NCBI GenBank assembly: GCA_040757475.1
Contig: JBFLWW010000002.1
Span: 23,818-87,817, forward strand
Source of the DNA: Nitrospirota bacterium
GTDB lineage: Bacteria; Nitrospirota; Thermodesulfovibrionia; Thermodesulfovibrionales; SM23-35
Direction of reading: 5' to 3'
DNA: 64,000 nucleotides
How positions within the stretch are numbered: the first letter of the stretch is position 1; every line of letters begins with the position of its first letter. Both the position numbers and the translations under genes were made by a program. The notes beneath the pieces were generated by a model. The model made no database searches, had not been told where the DNA came from, and was given only the letters and a program-made list of their open reading frames with translations. Below are positions 11,437 to 63,021 of the stretch, piece by piece.

Positions 11437-13638
11437 ATGACTATGAAAGCGTTTAAAAAGCGTGTTATCTATTATCTGTTATCTGTTATTTTAATTTCAC
11501 TGTTCACTGTTCACTGTTCACTGTTCACTGTTTATGCTGAGACAAAAAAGGCTGATGAGAAGGTTACATTCAATTTCGTGGATGTTGACCTCGCCACTAT
11601 AACAAAATTTATAAGTGATATTACAGGGAAGAATTTTATCTTTGATGAGAGGGTGAAAGGCAAGATAACAATAATAGCCCCTTCTAAATTAAGTGTTGAC
11701 GATGCATACAATCTTTTCACATCCGTGCTTGAGCTTAAAGGCTTCACAGTTGTCCCATCAGGTGTTGACGCATATAAGATTATCCCTGCTATAGAGGCAA
11801 AACAGCGTGGGATACAGCTTGGTGCTGAGAGAGTGCCTGTTAATGAAAGCTACATAGCAAGACTTCTACCTTTAAAACATATATCCTCGGATGATGCCCT
11901 GAGATTTCTCCAACCCCTTATCTCAAAGGATGGTCATATATCCACATTCGGCCCTGGCAACCTTCTCCTTGTTGTTGACTCTGGACTGAATATTGAAAAG
12001 ATTCTTTCAATTATTGAGGCTATAGACCAGCCGTCAGCAAGAGAAGAACCTGAAATTGTCTTTCTCAAACATTCAAGCGCAGATGCCGTTGCAAAGATTC
12101 TCAATGAGGGTTTTGGAAAGGAAAGGACAAGGGCTGTTCCAGGCCAGCCACCACATATTGAGGAAGGCAGGGCAGTGGCTGACCAGAGGCTCAATGCTAT
12201 TGTCCTCTTTGGAGACAAAGGTGTCAGGGAATTCATGAAGGGACTGATAGCCCTGTTAGATGTGCCTTCGCCTGAGGCCCAGGGAAGGATAAATGTCTAT
12301 TTCCTTGAAAATGCTGATGCAACCGAGCTTGCAAAGGTCCTTGAGGGTATGCTGAAGGGTGCACAACCTGCAAGACAGGTCGCCCCTCCTGCACCGGGTG
12401 CTCCGCCAGTCACTCCCTTTGAGGCAGTTGGCGGCATAACCATAACACCTGATAAGGCCACAAATTCCTTTGTGATAGTTGCCTCACCAGCAGACTATCA
12501 GAACCTCTCACAGATTATAAAACAGCTTGATAAAAGGAGAAGACAGGTATTTGTTGAGGCAATGATTGTTGAGGCATCAATTGATAAGCTGAGGGAGTTG
12601 GGTGCAAAATGGAGAGCAACAGGAAGACATGAGGGAGAGCCTATAGTAATAGGCGGTTTCGGAACCATGAACCAGTCAGCACTTCAGTCTGTGATTTATG
12701 GGCTGACAGGTCTTACAGCTGGAGGAATGGGAAATTTCCTTGATATAAAGCTTACCACGCTTGATCCAACTACTGGTAAAGTTACAGAAGGCACTGTCAC
12801 AGTGCCTGGTTTTGCAGCCATCTTTAGCCTCAGTGAGTTTAAGGATGCTGTAAATGTCCTTTCAACCCCCCAGATTCTCACATCTGATAACAAAGAGGCA
12901 GAGATTGTGGTCGGTGAGAATGTTCCATTCATATCAAAAAGGGAAGCTGACCCTGCAAGAACCCTGTCTATGTTCACCACTATTGAAAGAAAGGATGTCG
13001 GAATCACGCTTAAAATAACCCCACAGATAACTGAAGGAGACTATGTCAAGCTTGATATATATCAGGAGATATCAGCGCTGGTATCTCCACCTGCTGGGCT
13101 TGAAGAGGCCATTCTTACAGGCGTGGGACCTACTACAACAAAACGCTCAACAAAGACATCGGTTGTGGTAAAGGACAGGCAGACTGTTGTTATCGGAGGC
13201 CTCATGCAGGAAAGGGATGCGGAGAACCTGACAAAGGTTCCGCTTCTTGGAGATATACCACTTCTTGGATGGCTTTTCAAATATAAGAGTGTCTCAAAGA
13301 AAAAGACAAACCTGCTTGTATTTCTTACACCTCATGTTGTTAAAAAGGCAGAAAATCTTGCGCAGATTACAAGAGATAAAGAGAAGGAGTTTGCAAGGGT
13401 GGAAAAGCAGTATAAAGAAGGAGAGCTTTTAATAAAGTTCAAAGAAGGGGTTTCAGAGGAGAGAGCACTATCAATAATCTCTGAAAAGGGTGCATCAGTT
13501 ATAACATTTATCGAGAACATTAAGGTCTATCATATAAAACTCAGAAAGAGGCAGGATGTAGAAGATGCCCTGAAGGAATTTTCTGAGATGCCAGAGATTC
13601 AATATGCAGAGCCGAATTATGTAATTAAAATAAAGTGA
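11437..13638 (+). CDS. gspD: Type II secretion secretin GspD with an extra C-terminal subtilase-propeptide (I9)-like domain
   Basis: 733 aa with N0-N3 domains and a secretin core (VPLLGDIPLLGWLFKYKS). The C-terminal 72 aa are not typical of secretins. The signal peptide is encoded by a heptamer array. Confidence 0.85.
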   Translation: MTMKAFKKRVIYYLLSVILISLFTVHCSLFTVYAETKKADEKVTFNFVDVDLATITKFISDITGKNFIFDERVKGKITIIAPSKLSVDDAYNLFTSVLELKGFTVVPSGVDAYKIIPAIEAKQRGIQLGAERVPVNESYIARLLPLKHISSDDALRFLQPLISKDGHISTFGPGNLLLVVDSGLNIEKILSIIEAIDQPSAREEPEIVFLKHSSADAVAKILNEGFGKERTRAVPGQPPHIEEGRAVADQRLNAIVLFGDKGVREFMKGLIALLDVPSPEAQGRINVYFLENADATELAKVLEGMLKGAQPARQVAPPAPGAPPVTPFEAVGGITITPDKATNSFVIVASPADYQNLSQIIKQLDKRRRQVFVEAMIVEASIDKLRELGAKWRATGRHEGEPIVIGGFGTMNQSALQSVIYGLTGLTAGGMGNFLDIKLTTLDPTTGKVTEGTVTVPGFAAIFSLSEFKDAVNVLSTPQILTSDNKEAEIVVGENVPFISKREADPARTLSMFTTIERKDVGITLKITPQITEGDYVKLDIYQEISALVSPPAGLEEAILTGVGPTTTKRSTKTSVVVKDRQTVVIGGLMQERDAENLTKVPLLGDIPLLGWLFKYKSVSKKKTNLLVFLTPHVVKKAENLAQITRDKEKEFARVEKQYKEGELLIKFKEGVSEERALSIISEKGASVITFIENIKVYHIKLRKRQDVEDALKEFSEMPEIQYAEPNYVIKIK
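11464..11533 (+). repeat. Heptamer lattice, 10 units (4x GTTATCT-type, 1 transitional unit, 5x ACTGTTC), encoding the gspD signal peptide
   Basis: Read directly from the sequence. It is in register over 70 nt and translates VIYYLLSVILISLFTVHCSLFTV. Confidence 0.9.
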
Positions 13639-16769: not shown

Positions 16770-17205
16770 AGCGGGATTCACGCTCCTTGAGCTGATAATT
16801 GTTATATTTATACTCTCACTTGTAATGGCTGTGGTCTTTCCATCTTTTTATGGAATTGTAGATGGAAGGCTTAAATCAGAGTCAGGTAAGATTGCGTCTT
16901 TATTAAGGTATCTGAATGATAGCGCAATCTCCAGAAAAGAAACATTTATACTTAAGATTAACCTTGATAGTAATACCTTCTTATGGGAAGGTCCTGATGG
17001 TAAAAGGTCAGAAAGTTTCAATGGTCTTTTAGATATTTTTACAACCTCAACAGGAAGTGTCTCAAGGGGTGAGGTGATACTTTCTTTCGGTCCCCTCGGC
17101 ATTCAGGAGAATCTCAGAATCCACCTGAGGGATAAAGATAAGGAAATGGCGGTTACGCTTAACCCGATGAGTGGAAGGGTAAAAATAATTCAAAGTTCAA
17201 AATGA
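16738..17205 (+). CDS. gspH: Minor pseudopilin GspH
   Basis: The leader is MQTLRTGSYSKAG/FTLLELIIV. It overlaps the gspG 3' end. Its C-terminal IQSSK* and its stop codon lie inside a repeat element. Confidence 0.6.
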   Translation: MQTLRTGSYSKAGFTLLELIIVIFILSLVMAVVFPSFYGIVDGRLKSESGKIASLLRYLNDSAISRKETFILKINLDSNTFLWEGPDGKRSESFNGLLDIFTTSTGSVSRGEVILSFGPLGIQENLRIHLRDKDKEMAVTLNPMSGRVKIIQSSK

Positions 17206-17265
17206 AAAATTCAAAATTAAGGAATTCCAAAATTTTTAATTTTAAATTTTTAATTTTAAATTCCC
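17189..17265 (+). repeat. 77-nt AT-rich inverted heptamer element (11 units, core TTAAGGAATTCC), copy 1
   Basis: TTCAAAG TTCAAAA TGAAAAA TTCAAAA TTAAGGA ATTCCAA AATTTTT AATTTTA AATTTTT AATTTTA AATTCCC. It spans the gspH stop and gspI start. Confidence 0.9.
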
Positions 17266-17609
17266 GCCCACATCAGGTGAGCGGGTTCGCCCTCCTCGAG
17301 GTTATGATTGCAGTTGGCATTGTTGGGGCCCTCCTTGTTACCCTCATATATACATTGAATTATAATCTTGGCATTGCTGAAAGACACGAGACTATTACTG
17401 TTGCAGCTATACTTGCAAGAGATAAAATTTCCGAGATAGAGAAAATGCCTGTTGATTCCAGAGGAGAATTCCCTGAACCTTATTCTGATTATCAATATGA
17501 GACCACAGTCAAAGAATCCGTATATCCTAACATATCAGAAATATCAGTTGTTGTTAGAAAAGGGAAAGAAGAGGTTAAACTCAGCGAATTAATTCAAAGT
17601 GCAAAATGA
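17202..17609 (+). CDS. gspI: Minor pseudopilin GspI (repeat-encoded long leader)
   Basis: ATGA overlap with the gspH stop. The cleavage motif is QVSG/FALLEVMIAVGIV. The first ~22 codons lie in the 77-nt repeat element. Confidence 0.6.
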   Translation: MKNSKLRNSKIFNFKFLILNSRPHQVSGFALLEVMIAVGIVGALLVTLIYTLNYNLGIAERHETITVAAILARDKISEIEKMPVDSRGEFPEPYSDYQYETTVKESVYPNISEISVVVRKGKEEVKLSELIQSAK

Positions 17610-17669
17610 AAAATGCAAAATTAAGGAATTTCAGAATTTTTAATTTTGAATTTTCAATTTTAAATTTCC
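17593..17669 (+). repeat. 77-nt AT-rich inverted heptamer element, copy 2 (about 88% identical to copy 1)
   Basis: TTCAAAG TGCAAAA TGAAAAA TGCAAAA TTAAGGA ATTTCAG AATTTTT AATTTTG AATTTTC AATTTTA AATTTCC. It spans the gspI stop and gspJ start. Confidence 0.9.
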
Positions 17670-25044: not shown

Positions 25045-26705
25045 AACTTAGAGAACTTCTTCACGGTTGTGATTATATTGACTCCTCACTTGTCACTTGT
25101 CACTTGTCACTCGATACGGACATCTCAGGTGTAGCTTATGATTCGAGAAAGGTGAAAGAAGGTTACCTGTTTGTGGCGATAAAAGGTGAGAAGCACGATG
25201 GCCATGATTTCATCGGTGATGCAATTAAGCGAGGAGCAGTGGCAATAGTGCATGAAAAAACAGTAACGAGTTACGAGTTACGAGTTACGAGTAAAGAAAA
25301 AGACTTGTCACTTGTCACTCGTCACTTGTCACTTATTCAGGTCAAAAACAGCAGAAAGGCACTTGCCTGTATCGCAAATAATTTTTACGGGAGGCCCTCT
25401 GAGAGGCTCACAGTTATAGGTATAACCGGTACAAACGGGAAGACAACGACAACATATCTCCTTAAATCTATACTCGAATCGTGGGGAAAAGAAATCGGTC
25501 TTATTGGAACAATACAATACATGATAAAGGACAAAAGTTACTCTGCATTATATACAACACCCGAGGCATTAGAGTTCCATGGACTTTTAAGAGATATGCT
25601 CTTATCAGGGTGCACGCATATCATATCAGAGGTCTCATCACACGCCCTTGCTCAGAGCAGAGTGGATGGGACTGTTTTTAAGACTGTAGCGTTTACAAAT
25701 CTCACAAGGGAACATCTGGACTTCCATAAAACTTTGGAGGATTACTTCAGGGCAAAGGAGAGACTGTTTAGAGAGCTTCTCGATAAGGATGGGACCTCTG
25801 TAATAAATCTCGATGACCTATATGGAAAAAGACTGATCTCTTCACTCAGCAGCGGGGTCCCCAGAAAGTCGCAAGACTTTCTGGGGCGTATATTAACATA
25901 CGGCCTTGAGACAGGAGCAGACATTATGGCGAGGGATATCAATAGTTCATTCAAAGGGTTGAGGTTCAAAATAGCATTCCGTGGCAGGAATTATAATATC
26001 TCATCTGCTCTGATGGGTCTACCAAATGTATACAATATTATGTCTGCAGCTGGGGCATCAATCTCGATAGGAGTTCCATGGGATATAATTCTTGAGGGTA
26101 TAAAAAATTTAGGCACTGTTACAGGCAGATTCGAAAAGGTTAATCTTGATCAGAATTTTCTGTGTATCGTTGATTATGCCCATACAGAGGATGCCCTCGA
26201 GAGGCTGATATATACAGCGAGGGAACTTATAAATAAGCCTTTAGTCAATAGTCATCAGTCATTAGTGAAAGACAGTAACAAGTTACGAGTTACGAGTAAC
26301 AAGTATGAAGATAAGAACTTGTCACTTGTTACTTGTCACTCGTCACCCCGTATTATTACTGTCTTTGGGTGTGGAGGAGATAGAGATCGCAGTAAGAGAC
26401 CGGGGATGGGTACAGTAGCAACAAGGCTTAGCGATTTTGTGATTATCACCTCTGACAATCCGAGGTCTGAAGACCCGAACAAAATAATTAGAGAGATTGA
26501 AGCAGGAGCTATAAGGAGAAACTATATAATCGAACCTGACAGAGCAGAGGCAATCAAAAGAGCTATTATGCTGGCAGGCGAGGGAGATATTGTCCTTGTT
26601 GCAGGCAAGGGACATGAGGATTATCAGGAAATTAAAGGTGTAAGGTATAGATTTAATGACAGGGAAATATTAGAAAAGGCGATCAAACAAAGAATAAAGT
26701 CGTAA
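25041..26705 (+). CDS. murE: UDP-MurNAc-tripeptide synthetase MurE, carrying three in-frame repeat insertions
   Basis: Contains DSRKV, GITGTNGKTTT, DYAHTEDAL and GCGGDRD. The ORF is 554 aa versus roughly 490-500 aa typical. Confidence 0.9.
   Translation: MKLRELLHGCDYIDSSLVTCHLSLDTDISGVAYDSRKVKEGYLFVAIKGEKHDGHDFIGDAIKRGAVAIVHEKTVTSYELRVTSKEKDLSLVTRHLSLIQVKNSRKALACIANNFYGRPSERLTVIGITGTNGKTTTTYLLKSILESWGKEIGLIGTIQYMIKDKSYSALYTTPEALEFHGLLRDMLLSGCTHIISEVSSHALAQSRVDGTVFKTVAFTNLTREHLDFHKTLEDYFRAKERLFRELLDKDGTSVINLDDLYGKRLISSLSSGVPRKSQDFLGRILTYGLETGADIMARDINSSFKGLRFKIAFRGRNYNISSALMGLPNVYNIMSAAGASISIGVPWDIILEGIKNLGTVTGRFEKVNLDQNFLCIVDYAHTEDALERLIYTARELINKPLVNSHQSLVKDSNKLRVTSNKYEDKNLSLVTCHSSPRIITVFGCGGDRDRSKRPGMGTVATRLSDFVIITSDNPRSEDPNKIIREIEAGAIRRNYIIEPDRAEAIKRAIMLAGEGDIVLVAGKGHEDYQEIKGVRYRFNDREILEKAIKQRIKS
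25080..25114 (+). repeat. Heptamer array (GACTCCT, 3x CACTTGT, CACTCGA) in the murE N-terminus
   Basis: Read directly from the sequence. It translates DSSLVTCHLSLD. Confidence 0.9.
25262..25338 (+). repeat. Composite inverted heptamer element (5x AGTTACG-type, spacer unit, 5x CTTGTCA-type) in murE
   Basis: 11 units on one lattice. It translates VTSYELRVTSKEKDLSLVTRHLSL. Confidence 0.9.
26241..26345 (+). repeat. Composite element of 15 heptamers = 35 codons in murE
   Basis: 4x TAGTCA-type, 5x AGT[TA]AC[AG]-type, a spacer, then 4x CTTGT[CT]A-type units. It translates LVNSHQSLVKDSNKLRVTSNKYEDKNLSLVTCHSS. Confidence 0.9.
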
Positions 26706-26714
26706 TATCTATTA

Positions 26715-27512
26715 TTGGACATAGTGATGGTTATAGAATTAGAAGGGCTAAAGGTCTTCTATGATTTTGCTGGTGAAGGATATACCGTTATCTTGATGCA
26801 TGGGTGGGGAGGAGAAGCAGCAAGTTTCAAGCCAGTTTTTGACTATCTGTCAAAAAGCTATAAGGTATACGCTTTCGATTTTCCAGGATTCGGTAAGAGT
26901 GAACTTCCTATAGAGCCATGGGGAACTGAAAACTATGGGAAATTTGTTACAAAATTCTTTAATGCAATGAATATAAAAAAGGCAAATATAATAGCCCATT
27001 CTTTTGGAGGAAGGGTAGCTATATGGCTGGCTGCGAATTTTCCAGAGACGGTGAATAAACTGGTACTTGTTGACAGTGCTGGTATTAAGCCAAAGAGGAC
27101 ATTAAAGTACCATATTAAAGTGGCAGTTGCAAAGGCTAGCAAGAGAATTTTATCCCGCTCTATCTTTGGCAAATATGGTGAACGCTTACTTAATGGTTTA
27201 TATCGTTTAATTGGCTCTAAAGATTATCAACAGCAAATTGGTATTATGAGGGCTACTCTTGTTAAGGTTGTCAATGAAGACCTAAGATGGCTCTTGTCAA
27301 AGATTATAGCACCTACATTACTTATATGGGGAGAAGATGATAAAGATGTGCCCTTATCTTATGCAAGGATAATGGAAAAAGAGATAAGGGATGCTGGTCT
27401 GGTTGTTCTTAAAGGTGCAGGCCATTTTTCATACCTGGATAGATTTTCAGATTTCTGTTTAATTGTTTCAAAATTTTTTGGTGATATAAAAGGTGTTAAG
27501 AATTATGGCTGA
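26715..27512 (+). CDS. Alpha/beta-fold hydrolase inserted in the dcw cluster
   Basis: Contains HGWGG, the nucleophile elbow AHSFGG, an acid residue in GEDDKDVP and a His in GAGHFS. The start is uncertain (TTG 26715 or ATG 26727). Confidence 0.75.
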   Translation: MDIVMVIELEGLKVFYDFAGEGYTVILMHGWGGEAASFKPVFDYLSKSYKVYAFDFPGFGKSELPIEPWGTENYGKFVTKFFNAMNIKKANIIAHSFGGRVAIWLAANFPETVNKLVLVDSAGIKPKRTLKYHIKVAVAKASKRILSRSIFGKYGERLLNGLYRLIGSKDYQQQIGIMRATLVKVVNEDLRWLLSKIIAPTLLIWGEDDKDVPLSYARIMEKEIRDAGLVVLKGAGHFSYLDRFSDFCLIVSKFFGDIKGVKNYG

Positions 27513-31267: not shown

Positions 31268-32281
31268 ATGAGAAAGTCATTAGTCATTAGTCATCAGTCA
31301 TCAGTCATAATAAGGAAAAGATTATTATTTATTGTAGTCTTTTTACTTCTCACTTCTCACTTTTCACTTTCAACTTTGTTTGCTGATGAGATCCATTCCC
31401 GTGCCGCCCTTGTTATGGATGCGTCAACAGGAAAGGTGCTTTATGCAAAAAATCTAAACCTTAAGCTTCCTCCTGCGAGTACAGCAAAGCTGATGACTGC
31501 TATTGTGGCAATTGAAAAGGCAGACCTCAATGATGTTATTACGATAAGCAAAAGAGCAGTCAGTGTTGCTCCAACAAAGGCTGGATTTAAGGCAGGAGAA
31601 AAGGTGACAATTGAGACGCTTCTTTATGCAGCGCTTCTCAGGTCTGCAAATGATGCTGCTACAGCCCTTGCAGAAGCTGTAGCTGGTTCAGAAGCTAAGT
31701 TTGTCCAGCTTATGAATAGAAAGGCGATTGCTATTGGAGCAAAGGATACAAAATTCATAAACCCACATGGACTTCCTGGCCCTGACCAGTATATTACAGC
31801 CCATGACCTTTCAAAGATAATGAGACATGCGCTCAAATATCCCAGACTAAAAGAGATCATCGGGACTCGTGTTGCAGAGGTCTCAATAAAAAGGGGGAAG
31901 TCCATATCTCTTGAAAACACAAACAGACTTTTGTGGGTTGACGAATACCTTGTGGGTGGTAAGACAGGATATACCCGTAAAGCAAGGCATTGTTTTGCAT
32001 GTGCCTGTAAACGCAAAAAGAATACAGTTGTAGTTGCCCTCCTCGGCAGTCCAAGCAGGGAAAACCTATGGAAAGAAGCAGAATTACTGATTGATAAGGG
32101 ATTCCAGATAATGGCAAATAAAGAAGAACCTGTCATCTATTTTACAAAGGCAGATTATGATGCACTTAATGTGAAGAAGGCATCCTATAAGAAAAGTTCA
32201 AAGTTCAAAAGTTCAAAGTTAAAGGCTTCATCACTTAAGTATAGGGTTGCAAAGAAAGGTGAGGATGGGAATAAAGGATAA
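31268..32281 (+). CDS. dacA: D-alanyl-D-alanine carboxypeptidase (S11, PBP5/6-like) with repeat-encoded signal peptide and tail
   Basis: Contains SxxK (ASTAK), SxN (SAND) and KTG (GKTGYT). ATG 31268 follows AAGGTGAGGTGA. Confidence 0.8.
   Translation: MRKSLVISHQSSVIIRKRLLFIVVFLLLTSHFSLSTLFADEIHSRAALVMDASTGKVLYAKNLNLKLPPASTAKLMTAIVAIEKADLNDVITISKRAVSVAPTKAGFKAGEKVTIETLLYAALLRSANDAATALAEAVAGSEAKFVQLMNRKAIAIGAKDTKFINPHGLPGPDQYITAHDLSKIMRHALKYPRLKEIIGTRVAEVSIKRGKSISLENTNRLLWVDEYLVGGKTGYTRKARHCFACACKRKKNTVVVALLGSPSRENLWKEAELLIDKGFQIMANKEEPVIYFTKADYDALNVKKASYKKSSKFKSSKLKASSLKYRVAKKGEDGNKG
31274..31308 (+). repeat. Heptamer array (3x AGTCATT, 2x AGTCATC register) at the dacA N-terminus
   Basis: aagtcat tagtcat tagtcat cagtcat cagtcat, which translates KSLVISHQSSVI. 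Confidence 0.9.
31340..31374 (+). repeat. Heptamer array (TTCTCAC/TTTTCAC) forming the dacA signal-peptide h-region
   Basis: tttttac ttctcac ttctcac ttttcac tttcaac, which translates FLLLTSHFSLST. Confidence 0.9.
32193..32221 (+). repeat. AAAGTTC array in the dacA C-terminal tail
   Basis: aaagttc aaagttc aaaagttc aaagtta, which translates SSKFKSSKLK. Confidence 0.85.
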
Positions 32282-33674
32282 AAAAGTAACCGTAGTAGGC
32301 CTTGCCAGGAGCGGCGTAGGCGCAGCAAACCTTTTATCAGAACTCGGAGCTGATGTAACAGTAACAGACAAAAAAACAGAATATGAATTAAAGGATTTTG
32401 TAAAAAAGCTTAATCCTTCTATAAAACGTGCATTAGGAGGACACCCGGAAGATATATTCACATCAGCTGATATGATAGTCGTCAGCCCTGGTGTTCAGCT
32501 TGACACTCCACCCATTACTAATGCAAAAGCAAAAGACATCCTAATAATTGGCGAGCTTGAACTTGCATATCAGATAATAAGTTCAAAGTTCAAAATTCAA
32601 AGTTCAAAGTTTCCAAAATTTTTAGCAGTAACAGGTACAAATGGGAAGTCTACTACTACAACATTACTCGATCTTATGCTAAAGAAATGTGGGTTCGAGA
32701 CCCTTTTAGGAGGGAATATAGGGAATGCCCTGACCTCGTCACTTCTCACTTCTCACTTCTCACCTGATTACATTGTTGCTGAGGTATCGAGCTTTCAGCT
32801 TGAGTCAATAAAGGATTTCAGGCCAAAGGGTGCTGCTATCCTTAACATTACTCCTGATCACCTTGACCGATACTACTCACTCGAAGAATACAGAGATGCA
32901 AAGGCAAAGATATTTGAAAACCAGCAGGAGGACGATTTTCTGGTAATTAATGCAGATGACCCTGAAACAATGAAAGTTCAAAGTTCAAAGTTCAAAGTTC
33001 AAAGTGAAAAACCAAAAGTCTTTTACTTTAGCCGTAAGAAAGAGGTCAAGGGTATTTATTTCAAAGATGGACGAATCTATTGTAATTTCCCTGACTCCTC
33101 ACTCCTCACTCCTCACTTCCCACTTATAAAGGCTGATGAGATAAAGATAAAGGGTGTCCATAACCTGGAGAATGCCATGGCTGCTTCGGCCATGGCTCTC
33201 CTTGCAGACTGCCCCCTAAAGGCAGTGATAGATTCCTTGAGAGAATTTCCTGGTCTTGAGCACAGGCTTGAATTTGTCAGGGAGATAAATGGCATCCGAT
33301 ACATCAATGATTCAAAAGGGACTAATGTAGGTGCAGTCATCAAGTCACTTGAAAGCTTTACGAAGCCGATTGTTTTAATCGCGGGTGGAAGAGATAAGGC
33401 AGGAGATTTTTCGTTATTGGGACATTTAGTGAGAGAAAGGGTGAAGGCAATTATATTAATTGGTGAGGCAAGTGAAAAGATAAAAAAAGCCCTCGGTGAC
33501 CTTACAGAGACAGTGATGGCAAAAGACTTAAGAGATGCTGTAATAATATCACATAACAAGGCAGTGAATGGCGATGTAGTCCTGCTTTCGCCGGCATGTG
33601 CAAGTTTTGACATGTTTATGGACTTCGAGGACAGAGGAAGACAGTTTAAAGATATTGTATGGAGTTTGAAATGA
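32265..33674 (+). CDS. murD: UDP-MurNAc-L-Ala--D-Glu ligase MurD with four in-frame repeat arrays
   Basis: Contains VVGLARSG, VTGTNGKSTT, EVSSFQLE and DSKGTN. The start is probably ATG 32265, overlapping the dacA end. Confidence 0.9.
   Translation: MGIKDKKVTVVGLARSGVGAANLLSELGADVTVTDKKTEYELKDFVKKLNPSIKRALGGHPEDIFTSADMIVVSPGVQLDTPPITNAKAKDILIIGELELAYQIISSKFKIQSSKFPKFLAVTGTNGKSTTTTLLDLMLKKCGFETLLGGNIGNALTSSLLTSHFSPDYIVAEVSSFQLESIKDFRPKGAAILNITPDHLDRYYSLEEYRDAKAKIFENQQEDDFLVINADDPETMKVQSSKFKVQSEKPKVFYFSRKKEVKGIYFKDGRIYCNFPDSSLLTPHFPLIKADEIKIKGVHNLENAMAASAMALLADCPLKAVIDSLREFPGLEHRLEFVREINGIRYINDSKGTNVGAVIKSLESFTKPIVLIAGGRDKAGDFSLLGHLVRERVKAIILIGEASEKIKKALGDLTETVMAKDLRDAVIISHNKAVNGDVVLLSPACASFDMFMDFEDRGRQFKDIVWSLK
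32581..32611 (+). repeat. GTTCAAA array in murD (before the P-loop)
   Basis: gttcaaa gttcaaa attcaaa gttcaaa, which translates SSKFKIQSSKF. Confidence 0.9.
32739..32766 (+). repeat. TCACTTC array in murD (after GNIGNAL)
   Basis: 3x tcacttc plus tcacctg, which translates SLLTSHFSP. Confidence 0.9.
32973..33007 (+). repeat. AAAGTTC array in murD
   Basis: 4x aaagttc plus aaagtga, which translates KVQSSKFKVQSE. Confidence 0.9.
33093..33125 (+). repeat. CACTCCT array in murD
   Basis: gactcct cactcct cactcct cacttcc cactt, which translates DSSLLTPHFPL. Confidence 0.9.
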
Positions 33675-34864
33675 AATATGATAAGTGGATGCTTTTTGTC
33701 ACAATTCTCCTTATAGGTTTTGGTGCACTTATGATATACAGCTCCACATCTGTTATCACACCTGTGCTTGCAAAGAAAAATGTCACAGAATTTTATTATT
33801 TCAAAAGGCATATGTTTACGATGCTTATCGGTTTTGGGATTATGTTTTTTGCCTACAGGCTAAAACTTTCTACAATTAAGAAGATGGCCGTGCCCCTCCT
33901 GATTTTTTCTTTTGTATTACTAATATTAGTTTTTGTGCCTGGCATAGGTGTCTCTGCCAATAATGCAAGGAGGTGGATAAGACTCTGGCCCTCTACATTC
34001 CAGCCATCAGAGCTTGTTAAGCTCTCCATGGTCATATTTCTTGCAAAGTATATGTCAATGTTAGAGTATAGAACAGACAGCCTTGTCTCTTTTATAAAAC
34101 CTGTTCTTGTAATGGCGGTATTTCAGGTGGTTTTTCTCAAACAGCCTGATTTTGGGTCTGTGATAAGCCTTATGCTTCTGACATTTATAATGTTATTTCT
34201 TTCAGGCATAAGGCTCAGATATCTTGCATATCTGTCAGTGCTTGCCCTGCCTATAATATACAAACTTATCATGGAGCCTTACCGCCTCAAAAGGGTTATG
34301 GCATTTCTCGATCCGTGGAAAGACCCTCAGGGAAGCGGATTCCAGCTTGTACAATCTTTTATAGCCCTCGGCAGCGGAGGGCTAACAGGCGTTGGACTTG
34401 GAAAGTCCAGACAGAAATTAGCCTTCCTACCCGAATCCCATACGGATTTCATATTCTCTCTAATCGGGGAGGAACTCGGCTTTATAGGTGTGCTGGTCGT
34501 TATAACGCTTTTCTTGTTCTTGTTTATCAAGGGGATATCCATTGCAAACAGGTCAAGGGACAAGTTTGTCTATTATCTTGCATTCGGACTTTCACTGATG
34601 ATCTCTTTGCAGGCGCTAATTAATTTTGCAGTTGCAACAGGCATGGTACCAACAAAAGGTTTGCCACTGCCGTTTATTAGCTATGGGGGTTCATCTCTCT
34701 TTGTGAATATGGCTGCTATAGGGATACTGCTTAATATATCGAAGGGAGAGGAGAACAGAAAGATTGCAGATATAGACCCAAAAATGATTGTGAGGAGGAA
34801 GGCCCGATTAAAAATTCAAAATGCAAAATTCAAAAATCAAAATTACGGAATTCCTTTATTTTGA
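33659..34864 (+). CDS. ftsW: Peptidoglycan glycosyltransferase FtsW (SEDS) with repeat-encoded C-terminal tail
   Basis: SEDS motifs are present (RWIRLWPSTFQPSE, LPESHTDFIF, PLPFISYGGSS). Confidence 0.9.
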   Translation: MEFEMKYDKWMLFVTILLIGFGALMIYSSTSVITPVLAKKNVTEFYYFKRHMFTMLIGFGIMFFAYRLKLSTIKKMAVPLLIFSFVLLILVFVPGIGVSANNARRWIRLWPSTFQPSELVKLSMVIFLAKYMSMLEYRTDSLVSFIKPVLVMAVFQVVFLKQPDFGSVISLMLLTFIMLFLSGIRLRYLAYLSVLALPIIYKLIMEPYRLKRVMAFLDPWKDPQGSGFQLVQSFIALGSGGLTGVGLGKSRQKLAFLPESHTDFIFSLIGEELGFIGVLVVITLFLFLFIKGISIANRSRDKFVYYLAFGLSLMISLQALINFAVATGMVPTKGLPLPFISYGGSSLFVNMAAIGILLNISKGEENRKIADIDPKMIVRRKARLKIQNAKFKNQNYGIPLF

Positions 34865-34888
34865 ATTTTTAATTTTAAATTTTAAATT
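34808..34888 (+). repeat. AT-rich inverted heptamer element (core TTACGGAATTCC) at the ftsW 3' end
   Basis: About 12 units in register. The ftsW stop (34862-64) lies inside the element. The left arm translates RLKIQNAKFKNQNYGIPLF*. Confidence 0.9.
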
Positions 34889-41657: not shown

Positions 41658-41685
41658 TTTTTTATAGAAATAACATCAGAATATT

Positions 41686-41736
41686 AAAAATTGCAAATTG
41701 AAAATTTTAAATTTCAAATTTAAAATCTAAAAATTC
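41686..41736. repeat. AAATTNN heptamer array between 5S rRNA and tRNA-Ala
   Basis: aaattgc aaattga aaatttt aaatttc aaattta aaatcta aaaattc. Confidence 0.8.
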
Positions 41737-42918: not shown

Positions 42919-43569
42919 ATGCTTATTCGTATGCCTTTTACAGTTTGGTTTTTTTCACTTCTCACTTTTCACTTTTCACTTTTTGCTGTCTCTTTTGCTG
43001 CCTCATCCGTTGAGGAGGACATCGCAAGAATCCAGAAGGCTTATGATAGCATTAAAGACATTAAGGGAAGTTTTGTACAAAAGAGCCATATAAAGGACCT
43101 GAAGCGAACAGATACTTATAAAGGAGAATTCTTTATAAAGAGGCCACAGAAGATGAGGTGGGAATATAAAGGCGATAAAGCTCAGGAGGTAATCATCAAC
43201 AACAAGGATATCATAATATACCAGAAGGAAGAAAGGCAGGCGTTTAGAGGTAAATTTGATAGAGATACATATGGTCAGGCACCCATAGCCCTCCTCAGCG
43301 GATTCAGAGACATACAGAAGGAGTTTGTTGTATCAAAGAAAAATAGCACTCTTCTGCTTAAACCAATAAGGCCGATGGGAAATATCCTGTCTATTAAGAT
43401 AGAGCTTTCTGATAATAAATTCCCTATCAACTCATTTACCATAAACGACACGCACTCAAATTTGATAAAGATTATGCTGAAGGGCGTGAAGATAAATACA
43501 GGCTTGAAGGATTCTATTTTCGAGATTTCATTACCAGAAGACACGAAAATAGTGGATGAATTTCTTTAG
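42919..43569 (+). CDS. lolA: LolA-like periplasmic lipoprotein carrier
   Basis: Signal peptide, then IKGSFVQKSHIKDLKRTDTYKGEFFIKRPQKMRWEY, a LolA-type pattern. The signal-peptide h-region is a heptamer array. Confidence 0.6.
   Translation: MLIRMPFTVWFFSLLTFHFSLFAVSFAASSVEEDIARIQKAYDSIKDIKGSFVQKSHIKDLKRTDTYKGEFFIKRPQKMRWEYKGDKAQEVIINNKDIIIYQKEERQAFRGKFDRDTYGQAPIALLSGFRDIQKEFVVSKKNSTLLLKPIRPMGNILSIKIELSDNKFPINSFTINDTHSNLIKIMLKGVKINTGLKDSIFEISLPEDTKIVDEFL
42951..42985 (+). repeat. C(T)TTTCA heptamer array forming the LolA-like signal-peptide h-region
   Basis: tttttca cttctca cttttca cttttca ctttttg, which translates FFSLLTFHFSLF. Confidence 0.9.
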
Positions 43570-48122: not shown

Positions 48123-49214
48123 GTGATGTTAATCCTTGGAATAGATACCTCCTGTGATGATACATGTGCGTCAGTCGTCGAAGACGGGGTCAGAATAATC
48201 TCCAATATCGTCTCGACCCAGACAGAGATACATAAGAAATACGGTGGCATTGTGCCTGAGCTTGCATCAAGAAGACACATAGAGATGATATGGCCTGTTG
48301 TTGATGAGGCAGTGAAAGGCGCAGGGATTGAACCTGAAGACCTGTCTGCTATAGCAGTATGCCATGGTCCAGGACTGATAGGTTCCCTCCTCATAGGCTG
48401 TTCCTTTGCAAAGGCGATATGCTATTCAAAAAATGTCCCTCTTGTTACTGTAAACCACCTTGAGGGTCATATATTCTCTTGTTTTTTAAGGGAAGGGGGT
48501 TTCATGGAGGAAACTCCGTTTCCCCCATGCACTCCTGAATTTCCATTCCTATCCCTCATCGTCTCAGGAGGCCACACATGCCTCTACAGGGTTGATGGCT
48601 TTGGTAGATATAGAGAACTCGGCAGAACACGGGATGATGCTGCAGGTGAGGCATATGACAAGGTCTCAAAACTCCTTGGTCTCGGATACCCTGGCGGCCC
48701 TGTTATAGATAAACTCGCACAGGATGGAAACCCTGATGCAGCAGATTTCCCGAGGCCGTATCTGCCTGAATCCTTTGATTTCAGCTTCAGCGGACTTAAA
48801 ACCGCAGTGCTGAATTTCGTAAAAACAACAGTCATTAGTCAACAGTCATTAGTCAGTAGTCAAAAAACCAGTGACCAATGTCCAATGACCAATGACCAAT
48901 CCCACTTGTCACTGGCGGATATTGCTGCATCATTTCAGGCATCTGTAGTAGATGTACTTGTAAAGAAAACAGAATGGGCAGTAAAAAAAGAACGGATAAA
49001 AAGGGTTGCCCTCTCAGGTGGAGTCTCTGCAAACAGTGAATTGAGAAAAGGGATGAAGGGAATGGGTGATGCGATAGGAGTGGAGATATTTATACCTCCT
49101 GTATCATTGTGCACAGATAATGCTGCCATGATTGCTGGAGCTGGATATCATCATTTCAATGCCGGCAATATTGCAGGGCTTGATCTCAATCCACAGGCGT
49201 ATCTGCCGCTATAA
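48123..49214 (+). CDS. tsaD: tRNA N6-adenosine threonylcarbamoyltransferase TsaD with an 84-nt in-frame repeat insertion
   Basis: Contains ILGIDTSCDDT, HLEGH, SGGHT and FSFSGLKT. The ORF is 363 aa versus about 335-340 aa typical. Confidence 0.9.
   Translation: MMLILGIDTSCDDTCASVVEDGVRIISNIVSTQTEIHKKYGGIVPELASRRHIEMIWPVVDEAVKGAGIEPEDLSAIAVCHGPGLIGSLLIGCSFAKAICYSKNVPLVTVNHLEGHIFSCFLREGGFMEETPFPPCTPEFPFLSLIVSGGHTCLYRVDGFGRYRELGRTRDDAAGEAYDKVSKLLGLGYPGGPVIDKLAQDGNPDAADFPRPYLPESFDFSFSGLKTAVLNFVKTTVISQQSLVSSQKTSDQCPMTNDQSHLSLADIAASFQASVVDVLVKKTEWAVKKERIKRVALSGGVSANSELRKGMKGMGDAIGVEIFIPPVSLCTDNAAMIAGAGYHHFNAGNIAGLDLNPQAYLPL
48827..48910 (+). repeat. 12-unit (84 nt = 28 codons) composite inverted heptamer element inside tsaD
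   Basis: aacagtc attagtc aacagtc attagtc agtagtc aaaaaac cagtgac caatgtc caatgac caatgac caatccc acttgtc. Confidence 0.9.
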
Positions 49215-50082: not shown

Positions 50083-51426
50083 ATGCCGAAGGTAAAGACC
50101 TTTTATCAATGCCAGTCCTGTGGCTATACAAGCCCTAAGTGGCTCGGTAAGTGCCCTGACTGTGGGACATGGAATAGCCTTGTTGAAGAAAGGAAAGAGG
50201 CGGTTAGGAGTCTCGGCAAATCCGAACCAATATCCCTGAGTTCAATCACAGGTGAATACAAACAGAGAACATCCACAGGGATAAAAGAGCTCGACAGGGT
50301 TTTAGGAGGTGGGGTCGTCGCTGGTTCTGTTGTTCTCGTTGGAGGTGACCCTGGCATAGGAAAGTCCACACTGCTAATACAGGCAATCTCAGGCCTTTCA
50401 AAAAAATGCGGAAAGGTTCTTTATGTATCAGGTGAAGAATCTCCCGAGCAGATAAAGCTCAGGGCAGATAGACTCTCGATTAATTCATCCGAGATAATCC
50501 TGCTTTCAGAGACTTCACTCGAAGGCATTGTTGATACTGCCTCAAAAATCTCTCCAAAGGTAATGGTCGTGGATTCTATCCAGACTGTCTATACACAGGA
50601 ACTCGTCTCTGCCCCGGGCTCTGTAGGCCAGGTAAGGGACTGTGCAACAAAATTAATGCTCTTTGCAAAAAGGTCAGAAGTCCCTGTGTTCCTGGTCGGC
50701 CATGTCACAAAGGAGGGGGCAATCGCTGGTCCACGTGTACTTGAACATATTGTTGACACAGTCCTTTATTTCGAAGGCGACAGGGGATATTCATATCGAA
50801 TACTTCGGACCGTAAAAAACCGCTTCGGCTCAACAAACGAGATAGGGGTCTTTGAGATGTCTGATTCCGGTCTTCGAGAAGTGGAAAACCCGTCAGAGTT
50901 ATTCATTTCAGAAAGACCATTGAATGTTTCAGGTTCAATAGTTGTTGCCAGCCTTGAAGGCACAAGACCTATTATGGTGGAGATGCAGGCACTTGTCTCA
51001 CCGACTAACTTCGGTATACCTCGTAGAACAACCATAGGTGTTGACTTTAACAGGGTAAACCTCCTCGTTGCTGTGCTTGAAAAAAGGGCAGGATTCCACT
51101 TAGGAGGTATGGATATATTTGTAAATGTTGTTGGTGGACTCAGGATAATCGAGCCTGCTGTTGACCTCGGTATTGCTACAACAATAGCCTCATCTCTCAG
51201 AGAAGTATCTGCAGACCCCAGAACCTTTGTCTTTGGCGAGATTGGCCTTTCAGGGGAGATCAGGGCAGTTACTCAGGCAGAACAAAGACTGAAGGAGGCA
51301 TCAAAGGTAGGGTTTAAGCAGGCTGTTATACCTCTGGCTAACCTTGAAAAAATAAAAAACAATTTCGGATTAAAAATAACAGGAGTAAAAGATATTGAAG
51401 ACGGTCTCACAGCTCTCCTCCATTAA
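50083..51426 (+). CDS. radA: DNA repair protein RadA
   Basis: Zinc finger CQSCGYTSPKWLGKCPDCGTWNS, Walker A GDPGIGKST, the KNRFG motif and a Lon-like C-terminal domain. Confidence 0.9.
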   Translation: MPKVKTFYQCQSCGYTSPKWLGKCPDCGTWNSLVEERKEAVRSLGKSEPISLSSITGEYKQRTSTGIKELDRVLGGGVVAGSVVLVGGDPGIGKSTLLIQAISGLSKKCGKVLYVSGEESPEQIKLRADRLSINSSEIILLSETSLEGIVDTASKISPKVMVVDSIQTVYTQELVSAPGSVGQVRDCATKLMLFAKRSEVPVFLVGHVTKEGAIAGPRVLEHIVDTVLYFEGDRGYSYRILRTVKNRFGSTNEIGVFEMSDSGLREVENPSELFISERPLNVSGSIVVASLEGTRPIMVEMQALVSPTNFGIPRRTTIGVDFNRVNLLVAVLEKRAGFHLGGMDIFVNVVGGLRIIEPAVDLGIATTIASSLREVSADPRTFVFGEIGLSGEIRAVTQAEQRLKEASKVGFKQAVIPLANLEKIKNNFGLKITGVKDIEDGLTALLH

Positions 51427-51434
51427 AACTAAAT

Positions 51435-51525
51435 TAGAAATGAGAAATGGGAAATGGGAAGTAGGAAATGGGCGGTTAAGATTTTACTTCTTACTTCTCA
51501 CTTCTTACTTCTTACTTCTCACTTT
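51435..51525 (+). repeat. 13-unit composite inverted heptamer element (GGAAATG-type arm / TTACTTC-type arm) downstream of radA
   Basis: tagaaat gagaaat gggaaat gggaagt aggaaat gggcggt taagatt ttacttc ttacttc tcacttc ttacttc ttacttc tcacttt. Confidence 0.9.
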
Positions 51526-52099
51526 ATTCTCCTGTGCAGCACCACGGGTGGAGATACCCGTATATGAAGGAGTTGATGTAAAGGATGTCCTTTCTTCGAA
51601 AAACCGTATTTCAGCCATAGAGACCACATTTTCCATCATCTTTGAAAAAAATGATACTGAGATAAGAGGAGATGCAACACTGAATATCTCCCGTAATGGA
51701 AACCTGAGCCTGCGTGTCTATTCCCTTGGATTTCTTGCACTTGAACTCACATCTGATAATGGCATTATAAAAAGCAATCCGAGTCTTGACAGGAACAAAA
51801 ACGCAATCCTTACATCCGGCCTGAAAGACTGCCTTTTCTGGTGGGATATAAAAGACTTTGAGATTGATGAAAGAGATGATACCTACATCCTTAAAAATCT
51901 TTCGAGAAAGATATGGATAGACAGAAAAACAATGCTTCCCCGGAAACAGATAATCTCCCTTGAAGATGGCAGAGAATTAAAGGTGTATTATGAAGGTTCT
52001 GAGAAGGAAGGTGATATCTGGTATCCTGCAAAAATGAGGATAGAACTCTCTAAATATTCTGTGACATTGAGGATTAAGGGTATATCATTCACTATTTAA
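51440..52099 (+). CDS. Outer-membrane lipoprotein, LolB/DUF4292-like (putative); signal peptide wholly repeat-encoded
   Basis: Starts MRNGKWEVGNGRLRFYFLLLTSYFLLLTLFSC with an LFSC lipobox. The family call is weak. Confidence 0.45.
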   Translation: MRNGKWEVGNGRLRFYFLLLTSYFLLLTLFSCAAPRVEIPVYEGVDVKDVLSSKNRISAIETTFSIIFEKNDTEIRGDATLNISRNGNLSLRVYSLGFLALELTSDNGIIKSNPSLDRNKNAILTSGLKDCLFWWDIKDFEIDERDDTYILKNLSRKIWIDRKTMLPRKQIISLEDGRELKVYYEGSEKEGDIWYPAKMRIELSKYSVTLRIKGISFTI

Positions 52100-55384: not shown

Positions 55385-56612
55385 AAATCTCAAACGCTCC
55401 GACCCACAGGTTTTTGAGGCAATACAGAAGGAAATAGAAAGGGAAAGGGGTAAGATAGTACTCATCGCCTCTGAGAATTATGCAAGCATTTCTGTACTTG
55501 AAACACAGGGCTCGGTCTTTACAAACAAATACGCAGAGGGCTATCCCGGGAAAAGGTATTATGGAGGATGTGAATATGCTGATATTGTCGAAAACCTTGC
55601 AATAGAAAGGGCAAAGGAGCTATTCGGTGCAGAGCATGTGAATGTCCAGCCTCATTCAGGTACCCAGGCTAATATGGCAGTTTATTTTTCTGTTCTTAAA
55701 CCAGGAGACACGATATTGGGCATGGATCTGAGTCATGGTGGACACCTCTCCCACGGTGCACCTGTAAATTTCTCAGGCATATTTTACAGAACTCTCCCTT
55801 ATGGTGTTAACAGGGAAAGCGGCTACATAGACTATGATGACATAAGACGCCTTGCTCTGGAGAATAAACCAAAGATGATTCTCGTAGGTGCGAGCGCATA
55901 CTCAAGGATCCTTGATTTCAAGGCCTTCTCCGAGATAGCAAAGGAGGTTGGTGCATACCTGATGGCAGATATCGCTCATATTGCAGGCCTCATTGCAGCA
56001 GGTTTACACCCCTCTCCTGTGCCATATGCAGATTTTGTTACCACAACAACACACAAGACCTTCAGAGGGCCAAGAGGCGGCATGATAATGTGCAAAGCAG
56101 AATATGCAAAGGCAGTGGATAGAATGATATTCCCAGGGATACAGGGGGGGCCACTTGTGCATGTCATTGCCGCAAAGGCAGTTGCCCTGAAAGAGGCATT
56201 GAGCCAGGAATTTAAAGACTATCAGGCCACGGTTGTTAAGAACGCAAAAAAACTTGCAGAAGAGTTAATAAAAAAGGGCTTCAAGATTATATCCGGCGGC
56301 ACAGACACACATCTGATGCTTGTCGACCTGACCAATAAAGACATTACAGGAAAGGAAGCTGAAGAGTCTCTCGACATGGCAGGTATAACCGTAAACAAGA
56401 ATGTAATCCCGTATGATGAAAGGCCACCCACAATAACAAGTGGTATCCGACTTGGCACACCCTGCGTTACAACAAGGGGTATGGGTGAGGTAGAGATGAC
56501 AGAAATAGCAGAGATACTCTCGTTAGTAATACAAAATAAAGATAATACCGAGACAATTAGGGCTCTCTTAGAAAGGGTAAAAATTCTTTGTGATAAGTTC
56601 CCTATATACTAA
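55374..56612 (+). CDS. glyA: Serine hydroxymethyltransferase
   Basis: Contains [16 protein letters not shown] and [13 protein letters not shown]. Confidence 0.95.
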
Positions 56613-56622
56613 ATATACTAAA

Positions 56623-56709
56623 TGCAAAATTCAAAAAGCAAAATTCAAAAATCCAATTCAAGATTTAAAATTTCCTTAATTTTGCATTTTTCATTTTTAA
56701 TTTAAAATT
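56623..56709. repeat. AT-rich inverted heptamer element in the glyA-nrdR spacer
   Basis: Positions 56673-56696 are the exact reverse complement of 17604-17627 (24 nt). Confidence 0.9.
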
Positions 56710-59690: not shown

Positions 59691-59753
59691 ATAATTTAAA
59701 AATTTTGGTTTTTTCGTATAAAAGTTGAAAAGTATATTTATTATAAAAGCAGT

Positions 59754-59831
59754 CTGGATTCCTGCTTCCGCAGGAATGACACTTCGAAAATTGCCCTTCC
59801 TTATGTCATTCCCGTGAAAACGGGAATCCAG
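59754..59831. repeat. Inverted pair of 28-nt 'GGAATCCAG / GTCATTCC' palindromic repeat units
   Basis: CTGGATTCCTGCTTCCGCAGGAATGACA (59754-81) and TGTCATTCCCGTGAAAACGGGAATCCAG (59804-31). This is the same family as the widespread repeat that yields spurious 'LDSRFRGND / IPAFAGMT' ORFs. Confidence 0.7.
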
Positions 59832-59862
59832 AGTTAACAAACTTTAAAAGAGGTATTTTCAG

Positions 59863-62724: not shown

Positions 62725-63021
62725 ATGTTTAAGCTCATAAAAAGAGTTATATGTCTTCTGCTAATTATTGGAGTTCTCTTCATTACCCTTTCATTATGGC
62801 AGGGCGGAAAGCCTTTCAGGTGGGTCGGCAAAAAATCAGAAAAGGCAGGAGAAGTTATTAAAGAGAAAAGTGAAGCAATAAGCAAAGAGGCAGACAGAAT
62901 AAAAGAAAAGACAGAACAGATTAAGGATGCAACAAAAAAGGTGACTAAAGGCATTGAGAAAACAGGTGAAAAGATAAAAGGTATCAGAGGGAAAAAGGAT
63001 GAAAATGAAGCAAAGAAGTGA
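62725..63021 (+). CDS. Small membrane-anchored Lys/Glu-rich protein
   Basis: 98 aa. An N-terminal TM (VICLLLIIGVLFITLSL) is followed by about 65 residues of K/E-rich low-complexity helix. It is coupled to lolC and lolD. Confidence 0.5.
   Translation: MFKLIKRVICLLLIIGVLFITLSLWQGGKPFRWVGKKSEKAGEVIKEKSEAISKEADRIKEKTEQIKDATKKVTKGIEKTGEKIKGIRGKKDENEAKK

Follow-up and report, generated by a model that had tools for sequence, protein, structure and literature searches.

In-frame heptamer-array quasi-palindromes at hypervariable sites within murE of a Nitrospirota bacterium

The murE gene of a Nitrospirota bacterium (assembly GCA_040757475.1, contig JBFLWW010000002.1, positions 23,818 to 87,817) carries in-frame inserts that are built mostly of tandem 7-nt units, and in two places arrays of AGTTACG-type and CTTGTCA-type units stand together as the imperfectly complementary arms of a quasi-palindrome. 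All coordinates refer to this stretch of 64,000 nt, here called the window. The inserts fall at four sites of the protein, and in more than 100 related assemblies these sites hold hypervariable cassettes. We consider it fairly probable, at about 0.7, that the inserts are quasi-palindromes of heptamer arrays, selfish or neutral in nature, which a working enzyme tolerates in its permissive loops.

An earlier note on this DNA, made from the letters alone, described three period-7 blocks within murE, at 25080-25114 (block i), 25262-25338 (block ii) and 26241-26345 (block iii). Cutting the sequence into heptamers unit by unit reproduces that description, and Tandem Repeats Finder (TRF) places six period-7 arrays inside the gene (Table 1). 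The three interruptions are real; their count was too low, as a fourth insert at 25859-25886 had been overlooked. The latter is not heptameric. It contributes part of GVPRKSQDFLGR (aa 273-284, with a predicted local distance difference test score, pLDDT, of ~64) at a length-variable site, and its pattern has a single exact match in the window against 0 expected.

Block ii spans 77 nt, or 11 heptamers, and encodes VTSYELRVTSKEKDLSLVTRHLSL (aa 75-98) from its left arm through its right arm. In block iii, which is exactly 105 nt long, a TTAGTCA-type array is followed by an AGTWACR array, 16 nt of A-rich centre and a CTYGTCA array. The earlier account of block iii as a composite of 15 heptamers stands as to its length, while the exact heptamer count and the "unbroken lattice" depend in part on the chosen boundaries, since the register of the arms differs between blocks ii and iii. 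Block ii and the segment 26274-26345 align over their full length and have in common a ACAGTAAC start and a non-heptamer A-rich centre. The AGTTACG and CTTGTCA arms do co-occur twice as imperfect reverse complements, and the pair counts given for them are correct, with five Watson-Crick pairs, one G-T pair and one T-C mismatch per unit of the block ii arms. When the arms are paired in ungapped antiparallel fashion, block ii yields 23 Watson-Crick pairs, 3 G-T pairs and 4 mismatches over 30 positions, and block iii yields 22, 3 and 8, respectively, over 33 positions. Block i is made of the units GACTCCT, CACTTGT (three times) and CACTCGA, and it exceeds the modal length of the clade by only ~5 aa. 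The orthologous site of a related locus (L082) holds a left arm (GTGACAAGTAACGAGTTGCAGGAC), a GC-rich core and a right arm (GACTCGTCACTCATCACTCGTCACTCGTTACTT), of which the window keeps the right arm only; block i is therefore a half-element.

Alignments with MurE structures in the PDB pass from query residue 394/396 directly to 436, so that block iii has no aligned counterpart in the stretch from the DYAHTEDALERL helix to the RIITVFGCGGDRD strand and is thus a clean insertion. The real excess at this site (site 3) over insertion-free homologues is ~37 aa. The same alignments have a 13-aa gap at block ii, and homologues from other phyla are gapped at all three block positions instead of placing conserved MurE sequence there. 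The PDB and homologue alignments bear out the view that conserved MurE motifs flank in-frame insertions.

Table 1. Features of murE and of other repeat-bearing regions in the window
Feature	Position	Strand	Sequence or units	Remarks
murE coding sequence, 554 aa	25041-26705	+		open reading frame (ORF); UDP-MurNAc-L-Ala-D-Glu:meso-diaminopimelate (meso-DAP) ligase
Block i, lone right arm	25080-25114	+	(TCACTTG) x3.7	encodes DSSLVTCHLSLD, aa 14-25
Period-7 array	25086-25111		TCACTTG	TRF; 3.7 copies, 100% match
Block ii, left arm	25262-25289	+	AGTAACG, AGTTACG x3	
Period-7 array	25262-25292		AGTTACG	TRF
Block ii, A-rich centre	25290-25303	+	AGTAAAGAAAAAGA (AGTAAAG, AAAAAGA)	hairpin loop
Period-7 array	25303-25334		ACTTGTC	TRF
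Block ii, right arm	25304-25338	+	CTTGTCA x2, CTCGTCA, CTTGTCA, CTTATTC	last unit degenerate
Fourth insert	25859-25886	+	CCCCAGAAAGTC-GCAA-GACTTTCTGGGG	perfect 12-bp inverted repeat
Block iii-a array	26241-26268	+	TTAGTCA, ATAGTCA, TCAGTCA, TTAGTGA	encodes LVNSHQSLV
Period-7 array	26241-26266		TTAGTCA	TRF
Block iii, left arm	26274-26301	+	AGTAACA, AGTTACG x2, AGTAACA	
Period-7 array	26274-26305		AGTAACA / AGTTACG	TRF
Block iii, A-rich centre	26302-26317	+	AGTATGAAGATAAGAA	
Period-7 array	26317-26346		ACTTGTC	TRF
Block iii, right arm	26318-26345	+	CTTGTCA, CTTGTTA, CTTGTCA, CTCGTCA	inverted repeat I12
murD (32247-33674), four single-arm arrays	32579-32613, 32735-32762, 32973-33007, 33090-33117		AAGTTCA, TCACTTC, AAAGTTC, CCTCACT	
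tsaD composite	48826-48902		CAACAGT/CATTAGT + TGACCAA arrays	encodes TTVISQQSLVSSQKTSDQCPMTNDQS
Signal-region arrays	11461-11532, 31275-31372, 42952-42986, 51431-51525		TTCACTG, TCACTTC and similar	GspD secretin, D-Ala-D-Ala carboxypeptidase (dacC-like), LolA, putative lipoprotein
AT-rich arm pairs	17187-17262, 17603-17667		(AAAATTC)n-GGAATTCC-(GAATTTT)n	stop/start junctions of successive pseudopilin genes (type II secretion)
Further AT-rich arm pairs	34807-34888, 41683-41735, 56605-56704, 61350-61484			gene ends / intergenic gaps

By its domain architecture, its genomic position and the purifying selection on it, the gene is a member of the MurE family. The product matches PF01225 (Mur_ligase), PF08245 (Mur_ligase_M) and PF02875 (Mur_ligase_C) above the Pfam cut-offs, with the Mur_ligase_C match beginning only at profile position 37, and its PDB matches are MurE structures (E 1e-77 to 1e-95). 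The gene lies within a dcw (division and cell wall) cluster ordered mraZ-rsmH-ftsL-ftsI-murE-(hydrolase)-murF-ddl-mraY..., with ftsI on its 5' side and an alpha/beta hydrolase gene and murF on its 3' side. A P-loop (GxxGKT/S) and a DNPR motif are marks of MurE, the latter being tied to meso-DAP specificity. Both are present in the translation, as GITGTNGKTTT and TSDNPRSEDP, and both are invariant, along with the catalytic and nucleotide-binding residues, across 120 clade homologues. This set comprises the identical protein and 119 listed relatives of 488-620 aa from NCBI, JGI, ENA and Logan assemblies. The core outside the variable sites has 91% amino acid identity to the nearest relative (P0002, from locus L081), with a dS of 0.26 and a dN/dS of 0.18.

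An AlphaFold2 model built on the 120 homologues has a mean pLDDT of 84 and a predicted TM-score (pTM) of 0.83, and it superposes on the MurE crystal structures 4bub, 2xja, 1e8c and 4c12 with target TM-scores of 0.83-0.90. Residues 402-432, which make up the block iii loop, have pLDDT values below 50 and lie between a helix (383-398) and a strand (438-444), so that block iii is predicted to be a low-confidence loop between two core secondary-structure elements. Windows of 10 residues over the other inserts (11-20, 71-100 and 271-280) average 64-83. None of the inserts lies within the conserved core. With its ORF and invariant catalytic residues intact, a core dN/dS of 0.18 and a predicted fold that matches solved MurE proteins, murE does not look like a pseudogene in this copy, and its fold is probably normal.

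The murE reading frame crosses all of the blocks without a stop. Because a heptamer array passes through all three frames, units with TCA, TTA or CTA cannot pair with their exact complement in one ORF; a TCA in one arm needs TGA in the other, and a TTA needs TAA. The proposal that an exact complement would bring an in-frame TAA into the second arm holds on tandem units, and it generalizes to other arrays: TAA appears once the exact complement CGTAACT is repeated in tandem, and tandems of CTTGTCA or CTCGTCA are stop-free in every frame. In five coding arrays of the window, consensus units throughout would give one or two in-frame stops, and a variant unit is found exactly there, as with TCAGTCA at 26255 and CCAATGT at 48875. 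The third unit of block iii-a carries a T>C substitution at 26256, precisely where TAG would fall in frame, and in the left arm of block iii the TAA-holding variant is confined to places where TAA is out of frame. Since the variant units sit exactly at would-be in-frame stops, the arrays appear to be translated, with selection seemingly acting only on frame and stops. Translational bypassing, of the byp-like kind, was considered and set aside as unneeded, given that every block is in frame and stop-free.

Across the 120 homologues the four sites range in length from 2 to 57, 10 to 43, 11 to 48 and 8 to 53 aa. Only frame-preserving differences are found among these proteins, and the C-terminal domain is kept in all. 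Strains differ in length by 21, 24, 60 and 69 nt, and site 3 has length modes near 19, 25, 33, 41 and 48 aa. The sites contain translations of heptamer arrays (eg, SLVNSHQSLV, VTNDQCPMTNDQ, SEVRSQKSEV, SRITHHAS and IRNSKFEIRNSK), translations of GC-rich palindromes (eg, TPSLTLPPRGGGQGWGG and LPPHPPLTKGGYRGG) and arm-core-arm combinations. The block iii-a peptide of the window is also present at site 3 of P0004, P0007, P0017 and P0038, and three homologues (P0053, P0105 and P0115) have almost no insert. The GC-rich core of the relatives has no match in the 64-kb window at up to 3 mismatches.

Insert content changes far more quickly than the remainder of murE. The genes for P0016 (L091) and P0037 (L092) have a nucleotide identity of 98.2% and seven isolated differences, and at one junction of site 3 the pair has a 105-nt cassette of arms and a GC-rich core versus an unrelated 45-nt GC palindrome. 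A 69-nt segment is present in one of P0009 and P0020 and absent from the other. The protein cores of such cassette-differing pairs are 99.3-99.5% identical. P0017 and P0036 differ by an indel of 7 aa (21 nt, three heptamers), the window differs from L081 in all three blocks, and orthologous arrays from different genomes are less uniform than the arrays within one genome. A rule that inserts come in multiples of 21 nt is suggestive only; the 7-aa indel and two 105-nt cassettes agree with it, but the 45- and 69-nt cassettes break it. In the pair L093/L094 a 69-nt core is present in one member and absent from the other, and some cores hold a further nested insert of 24 nt (PACHPSGS).

The murE blocks are members of a repeat family that extends across the genome and the clade. 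The window contains 23 period-7 arrays, versus 0 in 20 dinucleotide shuffles, and other periods from 4 to 12 give 0-1; the enrichment is specific to period 7. The density of 23 arrays per 64 kb compares with 47 per 201 kb in related Nitrospirota loci and 19 per 807 kb in loci from other phyla. A doubled CTTGTCA pattern has 18 matches in the window (0.48 expected) and a doubled AGTTACG pattern has 7 (0.09 expected). Most of the arrays are inside ORFs, with at least 11 well inside murE, murD and tsaD; the window is ~93% ORF by a rough map, and because this map places gene starts only approximately, some part of an array close to an N-terminus may go untranslated. The arrays also occur unpaired, as murD carries four separate single arms at relative positions 0.24, 0.35, 0.52 and 0.60, within or between domains and 90-130 nt apart.

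A pattern that requires both arm types finds the AGTTACG/CTYGTCA composite in 8 metagenome contigs. It lies within a P-type ATPase ORF (...LVTRYELRVTSKDLRQHTELVTRHPSLVT...) and a CobB-like ORF (L087, L089), and other copies are intergenic. From the shared arms and centre of blocks ii and iii, and from the presence of the same composite in other contigs, we infer that composites have been copied. The P-type ATPase and CobB-like ORFs also hold separate GC-rich palindrome inserts (PPNPPLSKGGWGD and others), so several enzymes in these organisms contain multiple inserts.

RNA folding of 25262-25338 and 26274-26345, which had been put forward as a test, gives sense-strand structures beyond those of shuffled sequences for both block ii (-29.7 kcal/mol, z -4.2) and the right composite of block iii (-27.7 kcal/mol, z -5.1). 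The antisense strands fold more weakly (z -2.0 and -2.9, respectively). The fourth insert also folds (-23.5 kcal/mol, z -5.4), and block i alone has no fold on the sense strand (z +0.9). In tsaD it is the antisense strand of the composite that has by far the stronger fold (-34.6 kcal/mol, z -8.6, against -19.2 kcal/mol, z -6.0, for the sense strand), and the two strands of the composite at 51425-51530 are about equal in folding; on these grounds we rejected selection on sense-strand RNA as a general rule. In murE the sense strand folds better because its wobble positions are G-U. The simplest account of this bias is that it follows from the particular substitutions that remove stops, as the tsaD and 51425-51530 composites do not share the sense preference. 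A search of Rfam 15 returned no family at the gathering threshold; the best scores were 20-26 bits against thresholds of 33-80, and these included miRNA-precursor models that reflect just a hairpin.

Under the interpretation that we favor, the inserts would be useless to MurE and would persist as selfish or neutral DNA, with only frame-keeping, stop-avoiding variants surviving in an essential gene. Such a frame-and-stop filter would keep the arms from being exact complements and would leave variant units exactly at the would-be stops. Array length would shift by slippage in steps of 21 nt (three units), and whole cassettes may be copied between sites or swapped by recombination at conserved flanks. 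Small GC-rich palindromes are also nested between the arm pairs of relatives. Several points weigh against this interpretation. The cassette differences between near-identical genes could stem from recombination of long-standing alleles and need not mark new insertions. A Pfam scan of ~42 window ORFs turned up no transposase, no reverse transcriptase and no RAYT (REP-associated tyrosine transposase, where REP is repetitive extragenic palindromic). No target-site duplication can be seen at the edges of the blocks in the window, or when filled sites are set against empty ones in P0009/P0020 and P0016/P0037, and mobility is therefore an inference. The motif AAAAAC, which flanks block ii on both sides, was rejected as a target-site duplication because it belongs to the conserved coding sequence of MurE. 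In murE the hairpins have the stronger fold in the sense orientation (z -4.2 and -5.1 vs -2.0 and -2.9), which leaves some probability, though a low one, to an RNA-level role in this gene. As to a second murE, 64 kb of this genome were covered. Finally, all of the sequences are metagenome assemblies, and the conclusions rest on sequence and predicted structure.

The hairpins might instead be cis-acting RNA structures in the long dcw transcript, serving in ribosome pausing, mRNA stabilization or RNase processing, with the peptides a tolerated side effect. The sense strand does beat shuffles and, in murE, the antisense strand, and similar composites stand at gene junctions of the same operons. 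However, the contents are not conserved: the nearest relative, at a dS of only 0.26, differs at all three sites, and protein cores that are 99.3-99.5% identical carry unrelated cassettes. The strand bias is not general either (z -8.6 antisense vs -6.0 sense in tsaD, and about equal at 51425-51530), block i and the four murD arrays are partnerless single arms, and no Rfam family reaches threshold. These data leave RNA function an unlikely explanation. Growth in place by replication slippage alone, in which complementarity would arise through within-strand template switching and nothing would move between sites, is an improbable one to a similar degree. It accounts for the 21-nt, three-unit indel between close relatives and for the greater uniformity of arrays within a genome than between orthologs, and the literature reviewed in PMC4679880 ascribes heptamer over-representation to slippage. 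It fails to explain why the two-arm composite, with its similar non-heptamer centre, has two copies in murE and more in unrelated genes and intergenic regions of other contigs, or why genes with 98% DNA identity have entire cassettes replaced at identical junctions.

It is very unlikely that the inserted peptides are adaptive features of MurE, such as flexible linkers or docking loops for divisome or Mur enzymes. More than 100 assemblies do keep in-frame inserts at the same positions, and site 3 is on the C-terminal domain of an enzyme for which MurE-MurF complexes are known (PDB 8f5d). Yet the DNA repeat unit dictates the peptide sequence, near-identical proteins differ completely at these positions, and the same peptides are found in unrelated proteins (P-type ATPase, CobB-like); moreover, P0053, P0105 and P0115 are nearly insert-free and block iii has a pLDDT below 50. 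We give hardly any weight to an artefact or a decaying gene. The sequence comes from a metagenome-assembled genome (MAG), and assemblers can be confused by short repeats. Against mis-assembly, the architecture recurs in independent NCBI, JGI, ENA and Logan assemblies, always in frame, and the blocks are 28-105 nt long, which is assumed to be shorter than typical sequencing reads; the intact ORF, invariant catalytic residues, dN/dS of 0.18 and position-specific avoidance of stops speak against decay as well. A bolder possibility is that an active, undescribed process writes or moves heptamer quasi-palindromes as landing pads for small GC-rich palindromes, rewriting defined surface loops of essential proteins and building both signal peptides and the leaders of prepilins as fast as strains diverge. 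Such a process could involve a hairpin-recognizing single-strand transposase or template-directed repeat synthesis, and essential genes would be its deletion-proof refuges. We regard this as rather unlikely.

The closest parallels to the tolerated inserts that we favor are the Rickettsia palindromic elements (RPEs; Ogata et al. 2000), in-frame palindromic repeats in housekeeping genes that are treated in PMC10969869 and PMC3184786, where repeats fused internally to ORFs are reviewed. As portrayed there, RPEs are short palindromic repeats that lie in frame in unrelated housekeeping genes, are translated as peptides judged to be fold-compatible and are present in many copies per genome. The murE inserts likewise belong to a multi-copy inverted-repeat family, are in frame and stop-free, and are absent from orthologues; their location in loops with retention of the core fold is predicted from the model. 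RPEs differ in being unique-sequence families of ~105-150 bp that lack tandem 7-nt units and reside in an intracellular alphaproteobacterium. Here, by contrast, a few sites are reused clade-wide, and their contents differ between near-identical strains. The heptamer construction makes kinship with RPEs unlikely, and the two are likened by description only.

Short tandemly repeated repetitive (STRR) heptamers of cyanobacteria are said to have been treated by Mazel et al. in 1990, and cyanobacterial small dispersed repeats, reportedly, by Elhai et al. in 2008. The CAACAGT unit of the window is presumably STRR3, and we take TGACCAA to be the reverse complement of STRR2. Tandem 7-nt units in three or more copies with enrichment of period 7, as in STRRs, are found here, but the arrays are not predominantly intergenic. 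MacGregor 2015 (PMC4679880) found TAACTGA direct repeats to be enriched in Beggiatoaceae, cyanobacteria and some Bacteroidetes, with stop-codon logic setting the orientation allowed in ORFs; the few ORF cases are at protein ends, and one is in MurG. Those repeats and ours have in common short tandem 7-nt arrays, a heptamer-specific enrichment and the stop-codon limit on which orientation an ORF can accept, and the reverse form of their unit, TCAGTTA, resembles the AGTTACG and TTAGTCA units. The repeats of PMC4679880, however, are mostly intergenic single direct arrays, often just 5' of start codons, whereas those described here are inside the catalytic domains of essential enzymes, often as complementary arm pairs, and mark hypervariable cassette sites. 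Nitrospirota are mentioned 0 times in PMC4679880.

Other repeat systems offer more limited parallels. Like REP sequences, REPINs (REP doublets forming hairpins) and cyanobacterial small dispersed repeats (PMC3116915), the GC-rich hairpins of the relatives (eg, ACCCCCTCCCTAACCCTCCCCCCTCGAGGGGGAGGGCAGGGGTGGGGGGGA) occur at many sites, can be nested and are present or absent between close strains. They differ in that the cores are absent from the window itself, that no RAYT or partner enzyme was seen, and that the cores appear to be translated. Phase-variable contingency loci also have tandem repeats within ORFs whose unit length is not a multiple of three, but here an essential gene is affected, its arrays are interrupted and short, strain differences are frame-preserving only, and there is no sign of on/off switching. 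Compared with MITEs (miniature transposable elements with inverted repeats), the arms are inverted repeats but consist of variable-length tandem arrays rather than defined termini. Our literature search found no paper tying heptamer repeats to Nitrospirota or Thermodesulfovibrionia, no description of heptamer arrays as complementary arms inside catalytic enzymes, and none of clade-wide site reuse or cassette replacement between near-identical strains. In-frame palindromes and heptamer arrays are each known separately; what our search did not find described is their combination in catalytic enzymes, which we regard as neither an ordinary member of a known family nor a new category. In its description the system resembles RPEs that might have been built from cyanobacterial or Beggiatoa-type heptamers.

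These inserts indicate that non-triplet repeats and hairpin-forming pairs can colonize the interior of essential enzyme genes, and they provide a sequence signature for coding repeats: stop-free units, arms barred from exact complementarity, and variants exactly at would-be stops. In MurE, which is an antibiotic target, the four positions point to a tolerance of insertions of up to ~50 residues. Because their contents differ between genes that are 98-99% identical, the cassette sites are sensitive strain markers, as well as evidence of fast turnover. For MAG annotation, the elements inflate protein lengths, split hidden Markov model (HMM) matches and can give rise to hypothetical proteins that are not real. 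That some arrays encode signal peptides or the leaders of pseudopilins suggests that the repeats furnish simple functional peptide segments.

The neighborhood of murE varies between relatives. The alpha/beta-hydrolase gene between murE and murF (26715-27512) stands at the same place in the closest relative, L081 (6472-7257); L082 is without this gene and has murF directly 3' of murE. Elsewhere in the window, the signal-region heptamer arrays encode the hydrophobic cores of N-terminal signal peptides. In the putative lipoprotein (LFSC lipobox), the left arm encodes the charged n-region and the right arm encodes the h-region. The AT-rich pairs at gene junctions have arms that are 81-88% Watson-Crick complements (100% in one stretch of 16 nt), and the upstream ORF terminates where the stop-containing arm starts. 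The pairs at the pseudopilin junctions appear to encode unusually long leaders of ~24 aa (MKNSKLRNSKIFNFKFLILNS.. and MKNAKLRNFRIFNFEFSILNF..) before the N-methylation motif. At 34807-34888 the ftsW ORF crosses the left arm and ends at the start of the stop-containing right arm. An intergenic 29-nt inverted repeat at 59753-59832, in which each arm has its own GC hairpin (CCTGCTTCCGCAGG and CCCGTGAAAACGGG), looks like a REP-type double hairpin and is unrelated to the heptamers. The sole non-heptamer array found is a perfect period-8 array (AAGTTCAA, 4.1 copies) at 63368-63400 within the ORF 63018-63734, which resembles an 8-nt variant of AAGTTCA.

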